Assembly: GCA_045655065.1 (NCBI GenBank)
Contig: JAZOOP010000066.1
Coordinates: forward strand, 1-56,184
DNA from: Christensenellaceae bacterium
Lineage (GTDB): Bacteria > Bacillota > Clostridia > Christensenellales > Borkfalkiaceae
Reading direction: 5' to 3'
Length of the DNA stretch: 56,184 nucleotides
Shown here: one piece after another, positions 3,493-56,184 of the stretch
Layout of the letters: every line of letters starts with the position of its first letter
How positions within the stretch are numbered: the stretch's first letter is position 1
Made by a program: the position numbers and the translations under genes
The notes under the pieces: generated by a model
Told to the model about the DNA's origin: nothing
Databases searched by the model: none
The model's input: the letters and a program-made list of their open reading frames with translations, nothing else

Positions 3493-3676
3493 TTTCACAC
3501 CTTCTTCAATATTTTTAATAAAACGCTTTATTTTTTTACAAAAATGTAATAAAATAAATATAGTATATTTACTATTTATTATTCTACAACAATTTTTCAA
3601 AAAAGTAAACTAACAAAGGCTTAAAAATTAAGTTTTTTAACATTTTTAACCATATTAATAGTTTTTAGGAGAACAA

Positions 3677-4849
3677 ATGAAAGTTTGTGCGTTTATAACT
3701 GAATATAACCCACTACACCTTGGGCATATTAAGCACATTAAATATATGAAAGAAACTTTAAAAGCAGACAAGTTGGTTTGCATAATGAGTGGTAACTTTA
3801 CCCAACGTGGCGAAGCAAGTGTTTTAAATAAATATACCCGTGCAAAACAAGCCATAAACGCAGGCGCAGATATAGTGCTAGAATTACCTACCGTTTTTGC
3901 AATATCTAATGCAGAAATTTTTGCTAAAGGCGCTATTAGTATTCTAAACAAACTTAGCATTGTAGATACTTTGTGTTTTGGTGTAGAGAGTGGCGAAAAA
4001 GAAGATTATTTAGCCCTTGCAAAAGAGTTAAATAACGAAAGTAAAGAGTTTAAGAAAACCCTAAAAACTTATTTAGATAGTGGCGTTTCCTTTGCAAAAG
4101 CAAAGTTTTTAACGGTTAAAAGTTTAACTAACGTTGCCTTTGATGAAAACTTAGTAAATTCGCCAAATAATATATTAGGAATAGAATATGCTAGAGCCTT
4201 ATTACAATGTAATTCTAATATAGAAATTTGCCCTATGTTAAGGCTTGGAGACCACAACGATATTACCTATAAAAAAGGCATTACAAGTGCTTCTAGCATA
4301 AGAAATATGCTAAAATTAGGCAAAAAAAGAAAGGTTAAAAGTAGTTTGCCTAATTTCGTTTATAAAGAACTTAAACCATACCCTTTTGCCTTTGATAAGT
4401 TAATTATGGCATCTATATTAACTTCTTCGCAAGAAGAAATTGCAAGCATTTACGACTGCACCGAAGGGCTAGAAAACAGAATAAAAGCACTTGCTACCGA
4501 CAACCTTTGTTTAGAAGATTTTATAGAAAAAGTTAGCACAAAAAGGTATACTCAAGCAAGAATTAGAAGAATACTTATTGCTAACCTTCTTAAAGTTAGC
4601 AAGGGGCTTATAGACAGCGCTCTTTCTAACGATTTATATGCAAAAGTTTTAGCAATTTCTAACGATAGTAAAGACCTAATTTCAATCATAAACGGCAAAA
4701 GCAGTATTCCACTTTTAACTAGAAAAAGCGACTGCGAAAAACTGAAAAAAACCGCAAAACTTTGCTTTGAAAAAGACGTTTTGGCAAACGACCTTTATTC
4801 CCTAGTAACAAACGAAAAAAGCAATGAATACCAAACGTTATTCGTTTAA
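3677..4849 (+). CDS. tmcAL: tRNA(Met) cytidine acetate ligase / YlbM-type nucleotidyltransferase (UPF0348)
   Basis: ITEYNPLHLGHIKHI HxGH-type nucleotidyltransferase motif, and the ~390 aa length typical of the YlbM/TmcAL family. Confidence 0.8.
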   Translation: MKVCAFITEYNPLHLGHIKHIKYMKETLKADKLVCIMSGNFTQRGEASVLNKYTRAKQAINAGADIVLELPTVFAISNAEIFAKGAISILNKLSIVDTLCFGVESGEKEDYLALAKELNNESKEFKKTLKTYLDSGVSFAKAKFLTVKSLTNVAFDENLVNSPNNILGIEYARALLQCNSNIEICPMLRLGDHNDITYKKGITSASSIRNMLKLGKKRKVKSSLPNFVYKELKPYPFAFDKLIMASILTSSQEEIASIYDCTEGLENRIKALATDNLCLEDFIEKVSTKRYTQARIRRILIANLLKVSKGLIDSALSNDLYAKVLAISNDSKDLISIINGKSSIPLLTRKSDCEKLKKTAKLCFEKDVLANDLYSLVTNEKSNEYQTLFV

Positions 4850-4885: not shown

Positions 4886-6013
4886 TTGAAAATAGCACTA
4901 TTTACAGAAAGTTTTCTACCCGGCTGTGGCGGAACGGAAAACGCCGTATTAAAAACTGCATACGAGTTGGTTAACAAAGGGCACGAAGTTGCCGTTTTTG
5001 CCCCAGATTACCATAGGGCTAATAACGATAACGAATACCCTTTTAACGTTATTAGAAGTAAAAGTATTAAAATTACCGAAAGCGATATGTTTGCCATACC
5101 TAACCTAGATAAAAAGTTTAAGTTAGAAGTAAAAAAGTTTGCTCCAAACGTTATACACATTCACACAGTAGGTATGATGGCAGATTACGGCTTAAAATAC
5201 GGCAAAAAATATAACGTACCAACTATTTGCACTGCACATATGCCATATAAAAGAAGTTGGCAACAAACCATAAACTTTCCACCCGTTATTTGGTGGGTTA
5301 TGCGTAGAATTATTAAAAGGTTGCGCCTAACCACCCAAGTTTGCACGGTTTCTAATTTTATGGTTAAAGAACTGCAATCTTACGGGTATAAAAAGCCTAT
5401 TATCGTAATTAAGAACGGCAATACCGATAACGTTTTTGAAGAAAAAGCCTATGCCTCTAACGAAAAATTTACTCTAACCTACGTAGGTAGAATTGTTAAA
5501 TATAAGAATTTAGATTTTGTTTTTGAAGTAGTTAAAGAATTAAGTAAAAAAACTAATAACTTTGTACTTCGTATGGTTGGCGACGGCCCAGATTTTAAAA
5601 AATATACAAAAAAATGCAAGAAAATGGGCATAGAAAACTACGTTGAATTTGTTGGAAGAATTACCGATAGAGAAAAACTTGGCAAAGAGTATAAAAAAGC
5701 AGACGTTTTCTTTTTCCCAAGTGTTATAGATAGCGACGGATTGGGCTTATTAGAATCAGCAACCAAGGGAACTCCTTCACTAGTAGTAGAAAATACAGGA
5801 CCTTCCGAAAGAGTTATAAACAACCAAACAGGCTTTATTGCTGAAAACAACGTTAAGGATTTTGTAGATAAAATTATATACCTTATGAGCAACCCAACAA
5901 TAGTAGAAAACGTTGGTAAAAACAGCAAGAAACTTTGCACGACTTGGGAAGATAACGTAGCAAAATACATAGAAATTTATAGTCAACTTATTAATGCTAA
6001 AAAGAATAAATAA
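4886..6013 (+). CDS. GT4-family glycosyltransferase (possible glycolipid synthase)
   Basis: TTG start. N-terminal FTESFLPGCGGTENAV and C-terminal FFFPSxxDSDGLGLLES (E-x7-E-like) GT-B/GT4 signatures. Confidence 0.8.
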   Translation: MKIALFTESFLPGCGGTENAVLKTAYELVNKGHEVAVFAPDYHRANNDNEYPFNVIRSKSIKITESDMFAIPNLDKKFKLEVKKFAPNVIHIHTVGMMADYGLKYGKKYNVPTICTAHMPYKRSWQQTINFPPVIWWVMRRIIKRLRLTTQVCTVSNFMVKELQSYGYKKPIIVIKNGNTDNVFEEKAYASNEKFTLTYVGRIVKYKNLDFVFEVVKELSKKTNNFVLRMVGDGPDFKKYTKKCKKMGIENYVEFVGRITDREKLGKEYKKADVFFFPSVIDSDGLGLLESATKGTPSLVVENTGPSERVINNQTGFIAENNVKDFVDKIIYLMSNPTIVENVGKNSKKLCTTWEDNVAKYIEIYSQLINAKKNK

Positions 6014-6023
6014 CCCTAATATT

Positions 6024-6052
6024 AAAAGCCGTTAGTTTTTCTAACGGCTTTT
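6024..6052 (+). terminator. Terminator of the glycosyltransferase gene
   Basis: AAAAGCCGTTAG-ttttt-CTAACGGCTTTT perfect stem followed by a T-run. Confidence 0.75.
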
Positions 6053-6080
6053 TACTTTTTATTTAGCAATTTAAAAATAA

Positions 6081-6106
6081 AAAACTGCTGTTAATACAGC
6101 AGTTTT
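6081..6106 (-). terminator. Terminator downstream of rplL
   Basis: CTGCTGT-taat-ACAGCAG stem extended by A/T pairs. T-runs lie on both strands. Confidence 0.7.
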
Positions 6107-6125
6107 CTTTTTTTGTTTGTTGAAA

Positions 6126-6500
6126 TTATTCAGCAACAGCAGTAGCGCCAACTTCTTTGAATTTAGCAATGATTTGGTCAGCTTCTTCTTTGCTAACGTT
6201 TTCTTTAATTGTTGCACCAGCAACAGCTAAAGCTTTAGATTCAATTAGACCTAAACCAGTGATGTCTTTAACGGTTTTAATAACCTTAACGCCACCATCG
6301 CCAACTTCTTTAAGAACTACTTTGAATTCTGTTTTTTCTTCAGCAGCTGGAGCTTCAGCAGCAGCTACAGGAGCAGCAGCAACAGCTACAGGTGCAGCAG
6401 CACTTACTCCAAATTCTTCTTCTAAAGCCTTAACTAATTCGTTTAGTTCTAATACTGTCATACTTTTAACTTCTTCTAACATTTTTTGAATGTCTGCCAT
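6126..6500 (-). CDS. rplL: 50S ribosomal protein L7/L12
   Basis: [37 protein letters not shown] and an Ala-rich hinge. Start set at the ATG at 6500, preceded by GGAGGA. Confidence 0.95.
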
Positions 6501-53690: not shown

Positions 53691-54263
53691 TTATTTTACA
53701 AATTCAATTTTGCCGTTTTCCATTTTGCCAACTCTGGCTAAGGAATAAACGTCTAAACCAAGTTCAACTAACGCATCGTGCCCTTTTTGATAAGATTTTT
53801 CTACGGCGCAACTAACACCTTTAACGGTAGCCCCTGCTTGTTTACAAATATCTATAAGAGCTAAACAAGCGTTGCCGTTGGCCAAAAAGTCGTCTACTAT
53901 TAAAACTTTGTCTTCTTTGCTTAAATATTGTTTAGAAACGAGCAAGGTGTTTTCTTTTTGATGAGTATAACTATAAGCAGTTGCAGTATAAACATCGTTA
54001 GATATATTAGAAGTTTTACCTTTTTTTGCAACTAACATTTTACAATTAAAAAACTGCGCAGTTAAACATGCCAAACCTATGCCAGAGGCTTCTACGGTTA
54101 ATACCTTGTTAACTCCACAGTCTTTGTAATGTGCATATATATCTTTTGCAAGTTCCGCCAAAAAGGGCACGTCCATTTGATGGTTCAAAAAACAATCAAC
54201 TTTAAGAACGTCTCCTTCTAAAACTTTGCCTTCTAATAAAATTTTTTCTTCTAGTAATCTCAT
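53691..54263 (-). CDS. xpt: Xanthine phosphoribosyltransferase
   Basis: The MRLLEEKILLEGKVLEGDVLKVDCFLNHQ start and the PRPP motif VLIVDDFLANG. Confidence 0.93.
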   Translation of the reverse strand: MRLLEEKILLEGKVLEGDVLKVDCFLNHQMDVPFLAELAKDIYAHYKDCGVNKVLTVEASGIGLACLTAQFFNCKMLVAKKGKTSNISNDVYTATAYSYTHQKENTLLVSKQYLSKEDKVLIVDDFLANGNACLALIDICKQAGATVKGVSCAVEKSYQKGHDALVELGLDVYSLARVGKMENGKIEFVK

Positions 54264-54394
54264 TTTTTCCTCTAAAAAAATAAAAAACCTTAGTTGAACA
54301 ATTTAAGTAACGTTATTATAATTGCAAATAAGGGTTTAAGTAGAAACTAACGAATAAAAAATATGAATTTTTACGTAAAATTATTTATGTATTT

Positions 54395-54423
54395 ATTTTA
54401 ATACAAATATAAATATTTGTCAA
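54395..54423 (-). promoter_or_regulatory. Candidate sigma-A promoter of xpt
   Basis: Minus-strand TTGACA (54423-18), a 17-nt spacer, then TAAAAT (54400-395). It predicts a ~125-nt AU-rich leader. Confidence 0.5.
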
Positions 54424-54469
54424 GTAGAAAAAACAAAAACTACCTACTCTCTAAACAAAAAAATACTAT

Positions 54470-54563
54470 CACTTTTATGGCAGTTCCTATTAGGGTTTTT
54501 TATCCATAATAAAAGTGTAGCACACTATACTTCACTAAAAGAGAAACGTAGTGTGCTTTTCTT
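54470..54563 (+). other. Two adjacent long hairpins, the second terminator-like on the plus strand
   Basis: CACTTTTATGG (54470-80) pairs with CCATAATAAAAGTG (54504-17). AGCACACTA (54519-27) pairs with TAGTGTGCT (54549-57), followed by TTTCTTAT. Confidence 0.5.
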
Positions 54564-54591
54564 ATCCACAAAAGTTAATTTTATATAAGTT

Positions 54592-54824
54592 TAGCCGAGC
54601 GTAGCGAACGCCAACGACTTTAGTCGTTTTATTTTTAGCCTTGTGGCTAAAAGTGATATGCCGTTGGCGTGGTATTTTGGCTCTCGCCAAAGTTATATTA
54701 AATAAATCCTAAACTTGCCGTTAGGCAAATATAACTGCGTAGCAATATCACTTGCGTTAGCAAATCTAACAAATCCGTAAGGATTTATTTAGTTGCCGAA
54801 TCCCTTGCGGGGACTCGGCTACCA
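54592..54824 (+). other. Array of nine short hairpins with interleaved long-range complementarities, ending in a minihelix followed by ACCA (candidate structured RNA; strand uncertain)
   Basis: Hairpins lie at 54613-28, 54633-52, 54658-70, 54676-91, 54715-28, 54736-44, 54752-63, 54771-86 and 54795-819. Complementary 8-11-mers are listed in the findings. Confidence 0.35.
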
Positions 54825-54849
54825 ACTTGTTGTATTTTTTTTGGCGTTG

Positions 54850-54858
54850 TGCTATAAT
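54850..54858 (+). promoter_or_regulatory. Extended -10 element (TGcTATAAT) 7 nt upstream of the thioesterase ATG
   Basis: TGCTATAAT lies at 54850-54858 and the ATG at 54865. No Shine-Dalgarno sequence lies between them. Confidence 0.4.
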
Positions 54859-54864
54859 AAATTT

Positions 54865-55359
54865 ATGAAAGTAATTAAAAAACAAAAAAACAGTAAAAAT
54901 TGTATAATTTGTGGGTTAGATAATCATATTGGCGTAAAAGCCAATTTCTACGAACTTGAAGACGGCAGTTTGGCTTCACTTTTTTCTTTTAGTTTAGAAC
55001 ACCAAAGTTACCCTGAACGCGTGCATGGTGGAATGAGTTCTGCCCTACTAGACGAACTTATGGGCAGAGTTATTTGGGTTACAGAACCTACAACTTACGC
55101 CGTTACTACAAGTATGCAAGTTTCGTTTAGAAAACCCGTGCCTTACGGCGAAAACTTAAAAGCAAGGGCTGAAATAACCTTTAATTCTTTAAGAGGCTAC
55201 ACTGCAAAAGGCGAAATTTACAATATGAACGGCGAAACGTTAGTTTCGGCAACGGCAAAATACGTTAAACTGCCAGAAAAAACTATTACTAAAAACTTTG
55301 ATATGCACGAAGAAATGGCTTACTTAATTGAAGACGGCGTTGCAGAAATAGATTTTTAA
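54865..55359 (+). CDS. PaaI/4HBT-type hotdog-fold thioesterase
   Basis: N-terminal CIICG motif and [14 protein letters not shown], typical of PaaI-family thioesterases. Start set at the only in-frame ATG (54865). Confidence 0.75.
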
Positions 55360-55444: not shown

Positions 55445-56184
55445 ATGTGTATTTTTGGCTGTAATCGTTGTGGTAATAATTTTGGAAACAACGGTTTTAC
55501 AAATTACGGCTACGGAAATTATTCATTAAATAGAAACTATAACGATTGTTTTTTTAGTAGAAACTACAATAACAACGGTCGTTGTTGCAACCAAACACCA
55601 AGATTTATAATTGCAACCCAAACCATAAGGGGCCCTATCGGTCCGCAAGGTCCAATAGGTCCTGCCGGTCCACAAGGACCACAAGGTTTACAAGGTCCTA
55701 TTGGTTTAACTGGTGCAACTGGCCCACAAGGCCCTACAGGTGCAACCGGTGCTACTGGACCACAAGGTCCAATTGGTTTAACTGGTGCTACTGGCCCACA
55801 AGGTCCGCAAGGTTTGCAAGGTCCAATAGGTCCTGCCGGTCCACAAGGTGAAACTGGTGCAACTGGCGCAACGGGCCCACAAGGTCCACAAGGTGTACCT
55901 GGTGACCCTGCTATAAGCGACGTAGTTTATGCTACTGCAAGCGACGTAGCAGTTGAACCAAACGCAATTATTCCACTTACCTTAAACGATTCAACTTCAA
56001 CTTCTACGATGAGTGTTTCTGGTGGCTCTGTTGTAGTTCCAGAAGCAGGTAAATATTTAGTTAGTTATTTCTTTAACAACGTTGCTACTACAACGGACAC
56101 GGACGTTACTCTTTATTTAAATGGCGTTGCCGTTACTGATGAAAGTGTAAACGCTAGCACTAACGCAACTGCAAGTAAAACTAT
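55445..56184 (+). CDS. Collagen-like (GXY)31 protein with a BclA-C-terminal-like domain, 3'-partial (runs off the window; absent from the ORF track)
   Basis: My own translation from the ATG at 55445 (AAAGGAGAAAAAAG RBS) is open to the window end. It reads [16 protein letters not shown]...[17 protein letters not shown]...[17 protein letters not shown]...[10 protein letters not shown]. Confidence 0.85.
55631..55909 (+). repeat. 31 uninterrupted Gly-X-Y triplets (collagen triple-helix region)
   Basis: Counted directly: [30 protein letters not shown] ... GVP GDP. Confidence 0.9.

Follow-up and report, generated by a model that had tools for sequence, protein, structure and literature searches.

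The hairpin-rich region of the spacer between xpt and the thioesterase gene is, on the combined evidence of its linkers, its compensatory changes and its copies in other genomes, a diverged member of the Gut-1 hairpin-array family (RF01706). The window analysed here is a 56,184-nucleotide stretch from a Christensenellaceae bacterium, in which this array is carried by a 344-bp cassette (54478-54821) that is present in this strain and missing from the same spacer in its relatives. Our tentative preference, which we hold at somewhat less than an even chance, is that the cassette is a Gut-1-type, low-copy, insertion-prone intergenic module selected for the fold-back of single-stranded DNA, and we lean slightly towards fold-back DNA over RNA as the acting form. 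A previous sequence-only reading had proposed, among other explanations, a structured RNA or a "cluster of small palindromic elements"; both came close to the truth, since the region is a diverged Gut-1 array whose hairpins are kept by compensatory changes.

The extent of the cassette was established from spacer alignments with relatives. In every close relative recovered, belonging to three lineages (L001, L002/L003 and L372-L375), the segment 54478-54821 is absent from the xpt-thioesterase spacer, which measures 601 bp here versus 257-300 bp in those genomes. The empty sites read straight through, CACTTTTAC being joined to CAACTTG in L001 and CTGCTTTTAC to TAAATCG in L372/L375, with no intervening bases in either case. 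A single site is occupied in this strain and empty in all three lineages, which amounts to a precise presence/absence polymorphism. The dinucleotide TA (54476-77 and 54820-21) makes the boundary ambiguous; it flanks the cassette on both sides and, being only 2 nt long, could be a chance duplication. Homology to the other full-length copies begins a few bases from the left junction and stops at the right junction, with 54483-54820 being the span shared with the copies in L338, L141 and L319; the junctions of such copies can be fixed only where empty sites exist. The copies in other genomes are 74-85% identical to that of the window. One array occurs in these 56 kb, with no second array of the same kind elsewhere within the window, and two occur in L338 (L338a and L338b). 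A BLAST search with the cassette found nothing similar in the phage and plasmid collections, two more cassette-derived patterns found only chance matches in viral contigs, and the window's own thioesterase and xpt proteins returned no record on exact look-up. Judged from the alignments, the 344-bp segment is one that was inserted into, or has been uniquely retained in, the spacer of this strain; a single gain would be more parsimonious than separate losses in the three relative lineages, loss being a possible but less parsimonious history.

These limits revise the earlier outline of the element. The hairpin cluster described at 54592-54824 stands, but the unit to which it belongs is bigger (54478-54821). 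The ACCA that had been taken for its end is not part of it as such: the CCA (54822-24) is host DNA in the relatives' empty sites, and the preceding A (54821) falls in the ambiguous junction TA. Similarly, the 11-bp complementarity between 54467-77 and 54648-58 exists, but it relates host flank to element and is not a pairing within the element. The insertion spares the xpt promoter (54423-54395), and its right end lies 9 nt upstream of the thioesterase −35 element. Both this xpt promoter and the thioesterase promoter (about 54830-58, read from the sequence) are directed away from the cassette, and the reading of the neighbouring genes is unchanged by any finding on the cassette.

On the + strand, the sequence and the copy alignments define a left end, TGGCAGTTCCTATTAGGGTTTTT, with a small CC..GG hairpin (54478-54500). 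Compared by hand with the right end in reverse complement, it agrees at about 13 of 21 positions, a resemblance that suggests an imperfect terminal inverted repeat. The inverted-repeat scan placed a long hairpin of 17 pairs at 54519-54563 (54519-35 with 54541-57), which lies between an A-run and a T-run. This helix, the first in the covariation analysis, is 83% paired across copies, and in 5 of its pairs both partners have changed. From its form we infer a putative bidirectional terminator, although a simple terminator scan did not list it. In the copy alignment, TTATCCACA (54562-54570, + strand) equals the DnaA-box consensus and sits within the block CCACAAAA, which is invariant in 6 of the 6 copies covering it. 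Of the 83 non-redundant arrays from gut Clostridia on which the array statistics are based, only 3 have a perfect DnaA box nearby, so the box is particular to the window's subfamily, and a DnaA-box or origin reading was dropped for the same reason. An extra module on the + strand (54590-54628, copy alignment), composed of GTTTAGCCGAGCGTAGCGAACGCCAAC and the hairpin AACGAC-ttta-GTCGTT, splits the first linker; it contributes the first of the nine hairpins as well as the 5' strand of the "outer helix". It is missing in L338a, L338b, L141 and L319; in L167 a short insert of unrelated sequence is all that stands there, and L306 carries a near-identical GTTTAGCCGAGCGAAGCGAACGCCAAC located elsewhere in its array.

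The array itself consists of two half-arrays around a centre, all read on the + strand. The left half (54633-54698) contains hairpins at 54633-52, 54660-68 and 54676-91 (covariation helices 3-5), with the linkers GTGATAT (54653-59), GTGGTAT (54669-75) and GTTATAT (54692-98). The right half (54715-54792) contains hairpins at 54715-28, 54736-44, 54752-63 and 54771-86 (helices 6-9), with the linkers ATATAAC (54729-35), ATATCAC (54745-51), ATCTAAC (54764-70) and ATTTAG (54787-92). The centre, TAAATAAATCCTAAAC (54699-54714; inverted-repeat scan and copy alignment), is invariant in 7 copies, and its segment 54699-54710 is complementary at 12 of 12 positions to 54780-54791, which consists of ATTTA and the 3' arm of the last hairpin that is flanked by linkers. 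The terminal G+C-rich hairpin, GCCGAaTCCC-ttgcg-GGGAcTCGGC (54795-54819, sequence and fold), has an interior a/c mismatch on the + strand that becomes a G-U pair on the − strand. As helix 10 it is 73% paired, at a point where the alignment is poor, and it matches in position the terminator hairpin closing tRNA-adjacent arrays.

All nine hairpins of the sequence-only reading were recovered in place (54613-28, 54633-52, 54658-70, 54676-91, 54715-28, 54736-44, 54752-63, 54771-86 and 54795-819), and the inverted-repeat scan confirmed its exact complementary words, the pair TAGCCGAG (54592-99) and CTCGGCTA (54814-21) being readable directly. The long-range words that had been described as interleaved are thus present, but two 9-bp words among them (54651-59/54745-53 and 54691-99/54728-36) reflect nothing more than the opposite orientation of the 7-nt linker in the two halves. 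In the array core, short perfect palindromes with stems of 3-8 bp alternate with this linker, which is GTGATAT-like in the left half and has the complementary ATATCAC-like form in the right half. The halves are therefore inverted copies of one kind of unit, alike on both strands, and this inversion accounts for most of the interleaved complementarities. As for the 8-bp terminal helix, it is present here but not conserved, its letters occurring only in the window's row of the 7-copy alignment; L306 carries the TAGCCGAG word, and its terminal hairpin is not complementary to it.

The same architecture was verified across the 83 arrays. The two halves converge in all of them, and their palindromes differ in sequence but stay paired. 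The linker order +++−−− is the only one that occurs in numbers, the reverse order (−−−+++) having been seen in just two fragmentary patterns. A typical array has 3-4 linkers per half, with a spacing that ranges from 16 to 27 bp and clusters at 20-25 bp. In 248 of 288 cases, the segment between two linkers forms a palindrome that reaches its outermost bases, compared with 3 of 288 after shuffling, and a centre-to-end complement of at least 10 nt was found in 21 of 49 arrays and in none of 245 shuffled centres. Among the 3-4-nt loops, 126 are triloops and 70 tetraloops, and 139 of the 196 (71%) have the form 5'-C(G..A)G-3'; on the strand that carries ATATCAC, these read C(GNA)G or C(GNNA)G. A typical unit reads ATATCAC-TGCGAAGCA-ATATCAC, the linker being ATTTCAC in the G+C-rich members of the family. 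GNRA tetraloops are favoured in RNA also, a point against a DNA reading. No strand bias was detected in G.T versus A.C mismatches (16 vs 10, p = 0.33), and the other count of such mismatches (7 vs 13) was likewise non-significant and allowed no strand assignment.

Folding and covariation also set this region apart. Its minimum free energy is −88.7 kcal/mol on the + strand (z −5.43) and −86.9 on the − strand (z −7.00), and none of 200 shuffles folds as well as the hairpin region. The raw count of perfect hairpins fails to single the region out and is uninformative, because the other hairpin-dense spots in the window are plain A/T runs that score equally. The compensatory change in homologues that had been suggested as a check was indeed found: pairing in the 7-copy alignment amounts to 88%, and in 16 pairs both partners have changed, a number that 0 of 500 shuffles reach. 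Moreover, whole hairpins are swapped for unrelated palindromes between copies, as with GCCGTTGGC versus GCAAAACAGTTTTGC, and the number of internal units differs between copies. In the MFE fold of a canonical array, the linkers of the two halves are paired, forming a chain of four-way junctions. A "zipper" pairing of the halves was nevertheless dropped, since on inspection the linker variants do not covary between halves, which suggests that the zipper is not under selection.

With regard to the Gut-1 family, the Rfam search proposed earlier returned a sub-threshold match of the window copy at 54724-54795 on the − strand (41.5 bits, E = 1.1e-6, against a gathering score of 50), whereas the corresponding part of homologous copies scores above 50 bits (52.4 in L338a, 52.5 in L338b and 58.9 in L167), so membership rests on transitive homology. 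On the − strand from 54795 to 54715, CUAAAU, GUUAGAU, GUGAUAU and GUUAUAU lie between four hairpins, and the + strand at 54633-98 mirrors this arrangement. The region has at least three short hairpins in succession with a GUGA(A/U)AU-type heptamer between them, and in the 7-copy alignment these hairpins are kept by compensatory change despite their varying sequence. In the sections of Weinberg et al. (2010, PMC2864571) that concern the motif, Gut-1 was reported from human-gut sequences and rated "certainly RNA" on covariation. The flanks of that alignment have the same GUGAUAU...AUAUCAC layout as here, and a literature search on Gut-1, the heptamers and hairpin arrays found only this study. 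Both Rfam and Weinberg et al. class Gut-1 as RNA, which speaks against reading it as DNA.

The family occurs in Oscillospiraceae, Acutalibacteraceae, Ruminococcus, Christensenellaceae and Lachnospiraceae. Of the 83 arrays, 18 (22%) are no more than 120 nt away from the 3' end of a tRNA or tmRNA, the tRNA reading toward the array in 18 of 18. In these tRNA-adjacent arrays the tRNA is intact, its own terminator separates it from the array, and the array fills the gap between this terminator and the promoter of the next gene. This terminator possesses an A-tract as well as a T-tract, as would suit one that also ends an array transcript, an observation unfavourable to DNA as the acting form. The same applies to half-arrays found within phage operons (L131), which are co-directional with the genes and so must be transcribed there, and to one subfamily with a promoter-like TTTACA-17-TATATT located by eye ~25 nt upstream of the array. 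Among the matches listed, several MAGs and contigs have more than one array each. Hence the REP-like scatter of palindromes that had been raised as an objection was seen in part: the arrays recur in gut Clostridia, at more than one per genome, but they are not high-copy junk, since they are low-copy and structurally conserved. A PF05635 protein is the sole recurrent neighbour (9 of 83 arrays); no RAYT-like gene was found near the arrays, and no transposase, integrase or other mobilising gene recurs near the 83. This last observation, together with copies that are diverged (74-78% identical) and few, unlike those of a recently active MITE, goes against a mobile module. Flanking genes showed no significant orientation (62 toward the array vs 45 away, p = 0.12), and in a crude test those of half-arrays were split 18 vs 8. 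A viral scan with the triple heptamer yielded about 97% tandem-repeat noise and 4 true arrays in 120 loci.

On the explanation that we tentatively prefer, one DNA strand of the unwound duplex would fold into a row of very stable mini-hairpins displaying the linkers. The module would have a lifestyle comparable to that of REP/BIME or BOX elements, settling where insertion is harmless (usually directly behind tRNA and tmRNA terminators, and here between two divergent promoters) and bringing its own terminator-like hairpins. The window copy would be driven by neither neighbouring promoter and would have no relation to tRNA mimicry. The leaning towards DNA derives from the triloop excess and from the C(G..A)G loops, which are the known DNA mini-hairpin motif d(GCGNAGC)/d(GCGNNAGC) (PMC13037366, PMC3201870). 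It also derives from the absence of a G.T versus A.C strand bias with the same architecture on both strands, and from siting, as both neighbouring promoters point away and tRNA-adjacent arrays fill the terminator-promoter gap.

A serious alternative, though on balance a doubtful one, is that the cassette is a self-contained gene for a small non-coding RNA, a Gut-1 RNA in the Rfam sense, with a transcript of ~230-340 nt. In this case, the repeated single-stranded GUGAUAU/AUAUCAC linkers would bind protein or RNA in a sponge-like manner, and the first half could be masked by the inverted one zipping onto it. The Rfam match and the "certainly RNA" rating of Weinberg et al. (2010) are consistent with such a gene, as are the hairpin covariation found here too, the terminator-like hairpins at the ends with the bidirectional tRNA-side terminator, the promoter-like element of one subfamily, the half-arrays inside phage operons and the cross-half linker pairing of the MFE fold. 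However, no convincing promoter was found within or upstream of the window copy, whose neighbouring promoters both point away, the linker variants do not covary between halves, and G-U is not favoured over A-C. In addition, C(GNA)G triloops predominate, and the strand symmetry would have no obvious use in RNA.

Returning to single-stranded DNA, a broader claim, which we consider unlikely, is that Gut-1 arrays are an unrecognised class of strand-symmetric fold-back elements and not sRNA genes. Such arrays would present rows of C(GNA)G mini-hairpins with an ATATCAC linker, one set per strand, gaining and losing whole hairpin-plus-linker units. They would dock behind tRNA, tmRNA and rRNA operons, occasionally moving as insulated cassettes, and the opened duplex might be read by a host or mobile-element enzyme, such as a primase, an HUH nuclease or a hairpin-specific polymerase.

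It is quite improbable that the cassette acts as double-stranded DNA, with the heptamers serving as iteron-like sites, four per orientation, for a ribbon-helix-helix, ParB-like or initiator protein, combined in the window's subfamily with an A/T-rich stretch and the block that resembles a DnaA box. Taken with its flanks, the linker gives TATCACT, which agrees with the omega/ParB heptad 5'-WATCACW-3' (PMC9499535); the usual 3-4 linkers per half at a clustered 20-25 bp would suit such sites, and TTATCCACA is conserved in the subfamily. The omega system, however, needs at least four heptads, in tolerated mixed orientations but contiguous without gaps (PMC9499535), while here variable sequence keeps the heptamers 9-18 bp apart (spacing 16-27 bp). 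Furthermore, the ATTTCAC of G+C-rich members does not fit WATCACW, the DnaA box is absent from 80 of the 83 arrays, no partner gene recurs near them, and the perfect-palindrome spacers with oriented G..A loops would be left unexplained.

The earlier proposal of a tRNA- or tmRNA-like RNA, a decayed tRNA or an att remnant, ending in CCA, retains hardly any probability. It drew on GAATCCC and the ACCA following a G+C-rich hairpin, and related arrays do often adjoin tRNA or tmRNA genes; but ARAGORN found no tRNA or tmRNA gene in the window, and Rfam gave neither at E<=10 over 54200-54900. The CCA is host sequence, the 8-bp closing helix is confined to the window copy, and the tRNA-adjacent arrays have an intact tRNA with a separating terminator. 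Chance clustering of palindromes, for which only the many short perfect hairpins of the window's A/T-rich intergenic DNA could be invoked, can be dismissed in view of the fold (z −5.4 and −7.0), the family-wide match to a curated covariance model and the homologous copies elsewhere, whose compensatory changes refute it.

To our knowledge, Gut-1 has stood in Rfam since 2010 as a 77-nt model with no function and no cultivated host. The present analysis adds that the real unit comprises two convergent half-arrays, a defined centre and terminator-like hairpins on its flanks, that its hosts lie in named lineages of gut Clostridia, that it strongly prefers the spot just behind tRNA and tmRNA terminators, and that it behaves, in one version or more, as a cassette that is gained and lost. 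From the loop statistics comes the further, testable possibility that selection acts on a DNA structure and not on an RNA.

Several known systems resemble the arrays in part. Protein-sponge sRNAs (CsrB/RsmZ, CrcZ) likewise display a short repeated motif between or on many hairpins; however, the array motif is neither GGA nor A-rich, and half of its copies complement the other half. The REP/BIME elements of enterobacteria are also non-coding and extragenic; their clustered palindromes alternate in orientation or are inverted, their single strands fold, and they lie mostly behind genes and terminators at more than one per genome. In REP, the palindrome is conserved and the linkers vary, whereas here the linkers are conserved and the palindromes vary, the copy number appears low, and no RAYT-type gene was found nearby; with the conserved and variable parts reversed and this neighbour lacking, the arrays were not assigned to REP/BIME. 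MITE, BOX, RUP and Correia elements of Firmicutes and Neisseria share an intergenic location, a length of a few hundred bp with no ORF, presence/absence polymorphism, a varying number of internal units and, possibly, imperfect inverted ends and a TA duplication. In contrast to them, the cassette copies are diverged (74-78% identical) and not near-identical, compensatory change extends across families, and no parent transposase was identified. The omega/ParB heptad centromere (pSM19035 parS) was set aside, because TATCACT fits WATCACW but the heptads lie 16-27 bp apart.

The mini-hairpin DNA signals of the phage G4 complementary-strand origin, RSF1010 ssiA/ssiB and the phage N4 hairpin promoters (PMC13037366) share the C(GNA)G/C(GNNA)G caps and carry signals on both strands in an inverted arrangement. 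Their exact GCGAAGC core occurs in many members of the array family, the equivalent hairpin of the window reading GCGTAGC (54737-43). Those signals are single defined hairpins beside replication or transcription genes, while the arrays have 6-9 variable hairpins, a conserved linker and no associated replication gene. Finally, the likeness to Gut-1 (RF01706) itself comprises consecutive short variable hairpins with a conserved GUGA(A/U)AU heptamer between them, the occurrence in gut Clostridia and their metagenomes, and a covariance model that matches the right half on the − strand. Compared with it, the linkers of the window copy are degenerate (GTTAGAT, GTTATAT, CTAAAT), and the Rfam model covers one half, whereas the unit described here has two convergent halves, a centre and flanking terminator-like hairpins, and rides in this window on a strain-specific 344-bp cassette with extra modules.

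The spacer between xpt and the thioesterase gene of the window carries an insertion of 344 nt (54478-54821). In L001, the contig encoding the closest homologue of the thioesterase (95% identity), the flanks are near-identical to those of the window and everything between 54477 and 54822 is missing. This empty site reads CACTTTTAC followed directly by CAACTTGTTG, that of contigs L372 and L375 reads CTGCTTTTAC followed by TAAATCGTTG, and the filled site is CACTTTTA-[344 nt]-CCAACTTGTTG; since TA is found on both sides, the insertion boundary is ambiguous by 2 nt. Additionally, in a second lineage (L002 and L003; 86% identity) the spacer is 300 bp long and lacks the element, and in a third, whose xpt protein is 97% identical to the window's and occurs on 10 contigs, the spacer is 257 bp at all 4 places listed. 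The insertion accounts for the unusual length of the window's spacer (601 bp), and a single gain in the lineage of the window strain is the parsimonious reading. The cassette ends are imperfectly inverted (about 13 of 21 positions), with TA on each side. Both neighbouring promoters lie outside the insertion and are directed away from it, that of xpt (54423-54395) with 11 of 12 consensus matches and that of the thioesterase gene, as read from the sequence, with an extended -10 element (TTGTAT at 54830-35, TGCTATAAT ending at 54858).

The strong promoter-like site of xpt (TTGACA-17-TAAAAT) precedes a leader of about 130 nt (54264-54395, minus strand), in which Rfam gave no match, to a purine riboswitch or anything else, even at E<=10; xpt is under guanine riboswitch control in many Firmicutes. 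At gathering thresholds, Rfam identifies nothing in the window but the ribosomal protein L10 leader (RF00557; 7102-7245, minus strand, 60.9 bits). The product of the gene after the thioesterase (55446-56184, plus strand) is collagen-like, with GPQ/GPT triplet repeats, and its homologues contain Pfam Collagen and BclA_C domains, as in exosporium proteins, and the pairing of the two genes is kept in relatives (L006-L008 and L372).

A sequence-only reading had described nine local hairpins connected by interleaved complementarities. All nine hairpins are where it placed them, and its exact complementary words are present, but its delimitation was wrong, the unit being the 344-nt insertion. The segment 54585-54850 (266 nt) folds with an MFE of -88.7 kcal/mol on the plus strand (z = -5.43) and -86.9 kcal/mol on the minus strand (z = -7.00), and none of 200 shuffles folded as well. 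The number of perfect hairpins does not set the region apart, because A/T runs elsewhere in the window score equally high; no second linker-plus-hairpin layout was found elsewhere in the 56 kb. On the plus strand, the palindromes are joined by a heptamer linker, present in the left half-array as GTGATAT (54653), GTGGTAT (54669) and GTTATAT (54692), and in the right half-array as ATATAAC (54729), ATATCAC (54745), ATCTAAC (54764) and ATTTAG (54787). Left and right linkers are complementary, and therefore two of the 9-bp interleaved words, real as they are, represent the same linker in opposite orientation. The 11-bp complementarity between the host flank and 54648-58 arises because CTATCAC-TTTTA (54466-54477), left of the insertion point, mimics a linker plus hairpin start, being the reverse complement of GGCTAAAA-GTGATAT (54648-54659). 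This linker-like host word, missing in the L372 lineage, might reflect target choice or microhomology.

When thresholds are relaxed, Gut-1 RNA (RF01706; 54724-54795, minus strand) ranks first among the Rfam matches in 54200-54900, scoring 41.5 bits where the cut-off is 50 (E = 1.1e-6). Where Weinberg et al. 2010 (PMC2864571) present Gut-1, it appears as a non-coding RNA candidate restricted to human-gut metagenomes, with no further discussion at that place. In the Stockholm file of that study, flanks included, several entries extend beyond the modelled three hairpins, joined by GUGAUAU/GUGAAAU, into a centre and then hairpins joined by the complement AUAUCAC, which is the layout of the window's plus strand. 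Canonical arrays are called as Gut-1 at gathering thresholds (52-78 bits), and in the locus L264 both half-arrays are called, one per strand. Window-like copies also exceed this threshold (L338a, 52.4; L338b, 52.5; L167, 58.9 bits); therefore, the window copy, itself below the curated cut-off, is a diverged member tied to Gut-1 by these close homologues, and the element is a variant of that known family.

The core pattern ATATMAC-TGCNNNGCA-ATATCAC gave at least 120 matches in metagenome contigs, and three GTGATAT 9-18 nt apart gave at least 120 in species-representative genomes. The genome matches listed are nearly all gut Clostridia MAGs, and carriers among the matches listed belong to Oscillospiraceae, Acutalibacteraceae, Ruminococcus, Christensenellaceae and Lachnospiraceae; searches of phage, plasmid and viral collections did not turn up the window-type cassette. 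Homologous regions, as the sequence-only reading had proposed to seek by BLAST, were recovered by local BLAST against the listed loci: full-length copies (74-78% identity over 54483-54820, approximately the whole inserted segment) in the Clostridiales MAG L338 (two, inverted, 2.1 kb apart), in L141 (one) and in the Christensenellaceae MAG L319 (one), and partial copies in L306, L167 and L291. The inverted L338 copies (3494-3772 and 5875-6160) enclose 2.1 kb of ordinary genes, labelled from their translations as a short-chain dehydrogenase, a small acidic protein, a RuvX-like protein and a small ORF, and this arrangement is probably not a composite transposon. Copy alignments resolve the cassette into a small hairpin at the left end, a 17-bp hairpin between an A-run and a T-run, an invariant CCACAAAA block that forms TTATCCACA in 4 of 6 copies, about 20 A/T-rich nucleotides, two half-arrays surrounding the centre TAAATAAATCC, and a terminal G+C-rich hairpin. 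The window copy has an extra 38-nt module (54590-54628) that is missing in four copies, lies at a different position in L306 and is matched in L167 by an unrelated short insert only. This module contains the first of the nine hairpins and the 5' arm of a proposed 8-bp terminal helix, which for that reason is without counterpart in other copies; its arms are not complementary in L306.

Among the loci listed, 145 arrays of 5 or more linkers were reduced to 83 non-redundant arrays. GTGATAT linkers precede ATATCAC linkers (+++---), the opposite arrangement occurring in two fragmentary patterns only, and linkers recur at a spacing of 16 or 20-25 nt. Between linkers of like orientation, 248 of 288 segments form perfect palindromes of 3 bp or more from their very ends, versus 3 of 288 when shuffled, and in 219 of these 248 a T-A pair adjoins the linker. 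Loop orientation follows that of the linker (GAA, GCA, GTAA, GTA and GCAA on the ATATCAC strand), with 126 triloops versus 70 tetraloops, and 139 of these 196 follow 5'-C(G..A)G-3'. In a 7-copy alignment of the window subfamily, the local hairpins are 88% paired, with compensatory changes on both sides of 16 pairs, a number reached by 0 of 500 shuffles; long-range helices are invariant or window-specific. In 21 of 49 arrays, versus 0 of 245 shuffled centres, the centre is complementary to the terminal unit over at least 10 nt, and the sequence of this complement varies by subfamily (TATATTCGCC/GGCGAATATA; TAAATAAATCC/GGATTTATTTA in the window; GGGACGAATATA in L135). The MFE fold predicts a half-to-half zipper, which is not evidently under selection, since on inspection the linker variants of one half do not correspond to those of the other.

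For 18 of the 83 arrays (22%), the 3' end of a tRNA (Tyr, Met, Arg, Trp, Gln, Thr, Cys, Asn or Gly) or tmRNA is no more than 120 nt away, and this gene is directed toward the array in 18/18 cases; a 5S-tRNA cluster ends with the array in L135. Usually, the tRNA is followed by a terminator with A-tract and T-tract, by the array 2-3 nt further on, and by the promoter of the next gene. No recurrent transposase or integrase was found beside the 83 arrays, the sole recurrent neighbouring protein being PF05635 ("23S rRNA-intervening sequence protein"), whose four-helix-bundle gene lies directly beyond nine (L133, L139, L142, L147, L195, L197, L261, L348 and L352) and, in four loci also adjacent to a tRNA, is co-directional with it. 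Of the arrays flanked by called features on both sides, 33 separate tandem genes, 9 convergent genes and 3 divergent genes, and the window's site between divergent promoters is a rare case. Several MAGs have two matches among those listed and several contigs two arrays, some paired within a few hundred bases: L240 (tandem, before tRNA-Arg, each with its own terminator-like hairpin), L312 (1042-1180 and 1455-1593) and L297 (6927-7054 and 7646-7817). A few arrays or half-arrays occur on phage contigs (L047, L026, L131 and L072). The viral contig L026 has a G+C-rich array at 5000-5400 (GTGAAAT x3, then ATTTCAC x4), immediately followed by two distinct short tandem repeats, (GGTAACTTGCC)n and (GCTATCT/GCTATCG)n.

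The element is structurally constrained, repeated, non-coding and polymorphic for presence at the window site. These results redefine the Gut-1 unit, name its hosts and preferred sites and document a gain/loss event, and the locus raises a testable DNA-versus-RNA question for Gut-1 arrays. An sRNA gene is only slightly less likely than a DNA-level reading: Gut-1 is classed as RNA in Rfam, phage operons contain half-arrays, the terminator beside tRNA-adjacent arrays is bidirectional, one subfamily has a promoter-like element and GNRA loops occur. A DNA-level role is suggested instead by an architecture that is the same on both strands, by stems without bias of G.T over A.C, by the excess of triloops, and by the usual location between terminator and promoter, no neighbouring promoter entering the element in the window. 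An array bound as duplex heptads is improbable; the linker fits the WATCACW of omega, but omega needs contiguous heptads (PMC9499535). Anything tRNA-like or tmRNA-like, as the sequence-only reading had proposed from a terminal ACCA, can practically be dismissed, given no such gene in the window by ARAGORN, no such Rfam match in 54200-54900 at E<=10, and an ACCA that belongs to the host flank because CCA is present in empty sites and the A falls within the ambiguous TA.

The element is tentatively proposed to be a repeat that acts by fold-back of DNA and has a lifestyle like that of REP/BIME elements; the state under selection would be one strand folded up as successive hairpins. The imperfect inverted ends and the TA on both sides fit a MITE, without proving one. 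The loops match C(GNA)G triloops and C(GNNA)G tetraloops closed by a C-G pair, an extraordinarily stable mini-hairpin DNA motif that occurs at phage G4 origins, RSF1010 ssiA and N4 promoters (PMC13037366, PMC3201870), and this match also argues for a role at the DNA level; many arrays of the family carry the exact GCGAAGC of these mini-hairpin DNA signals.
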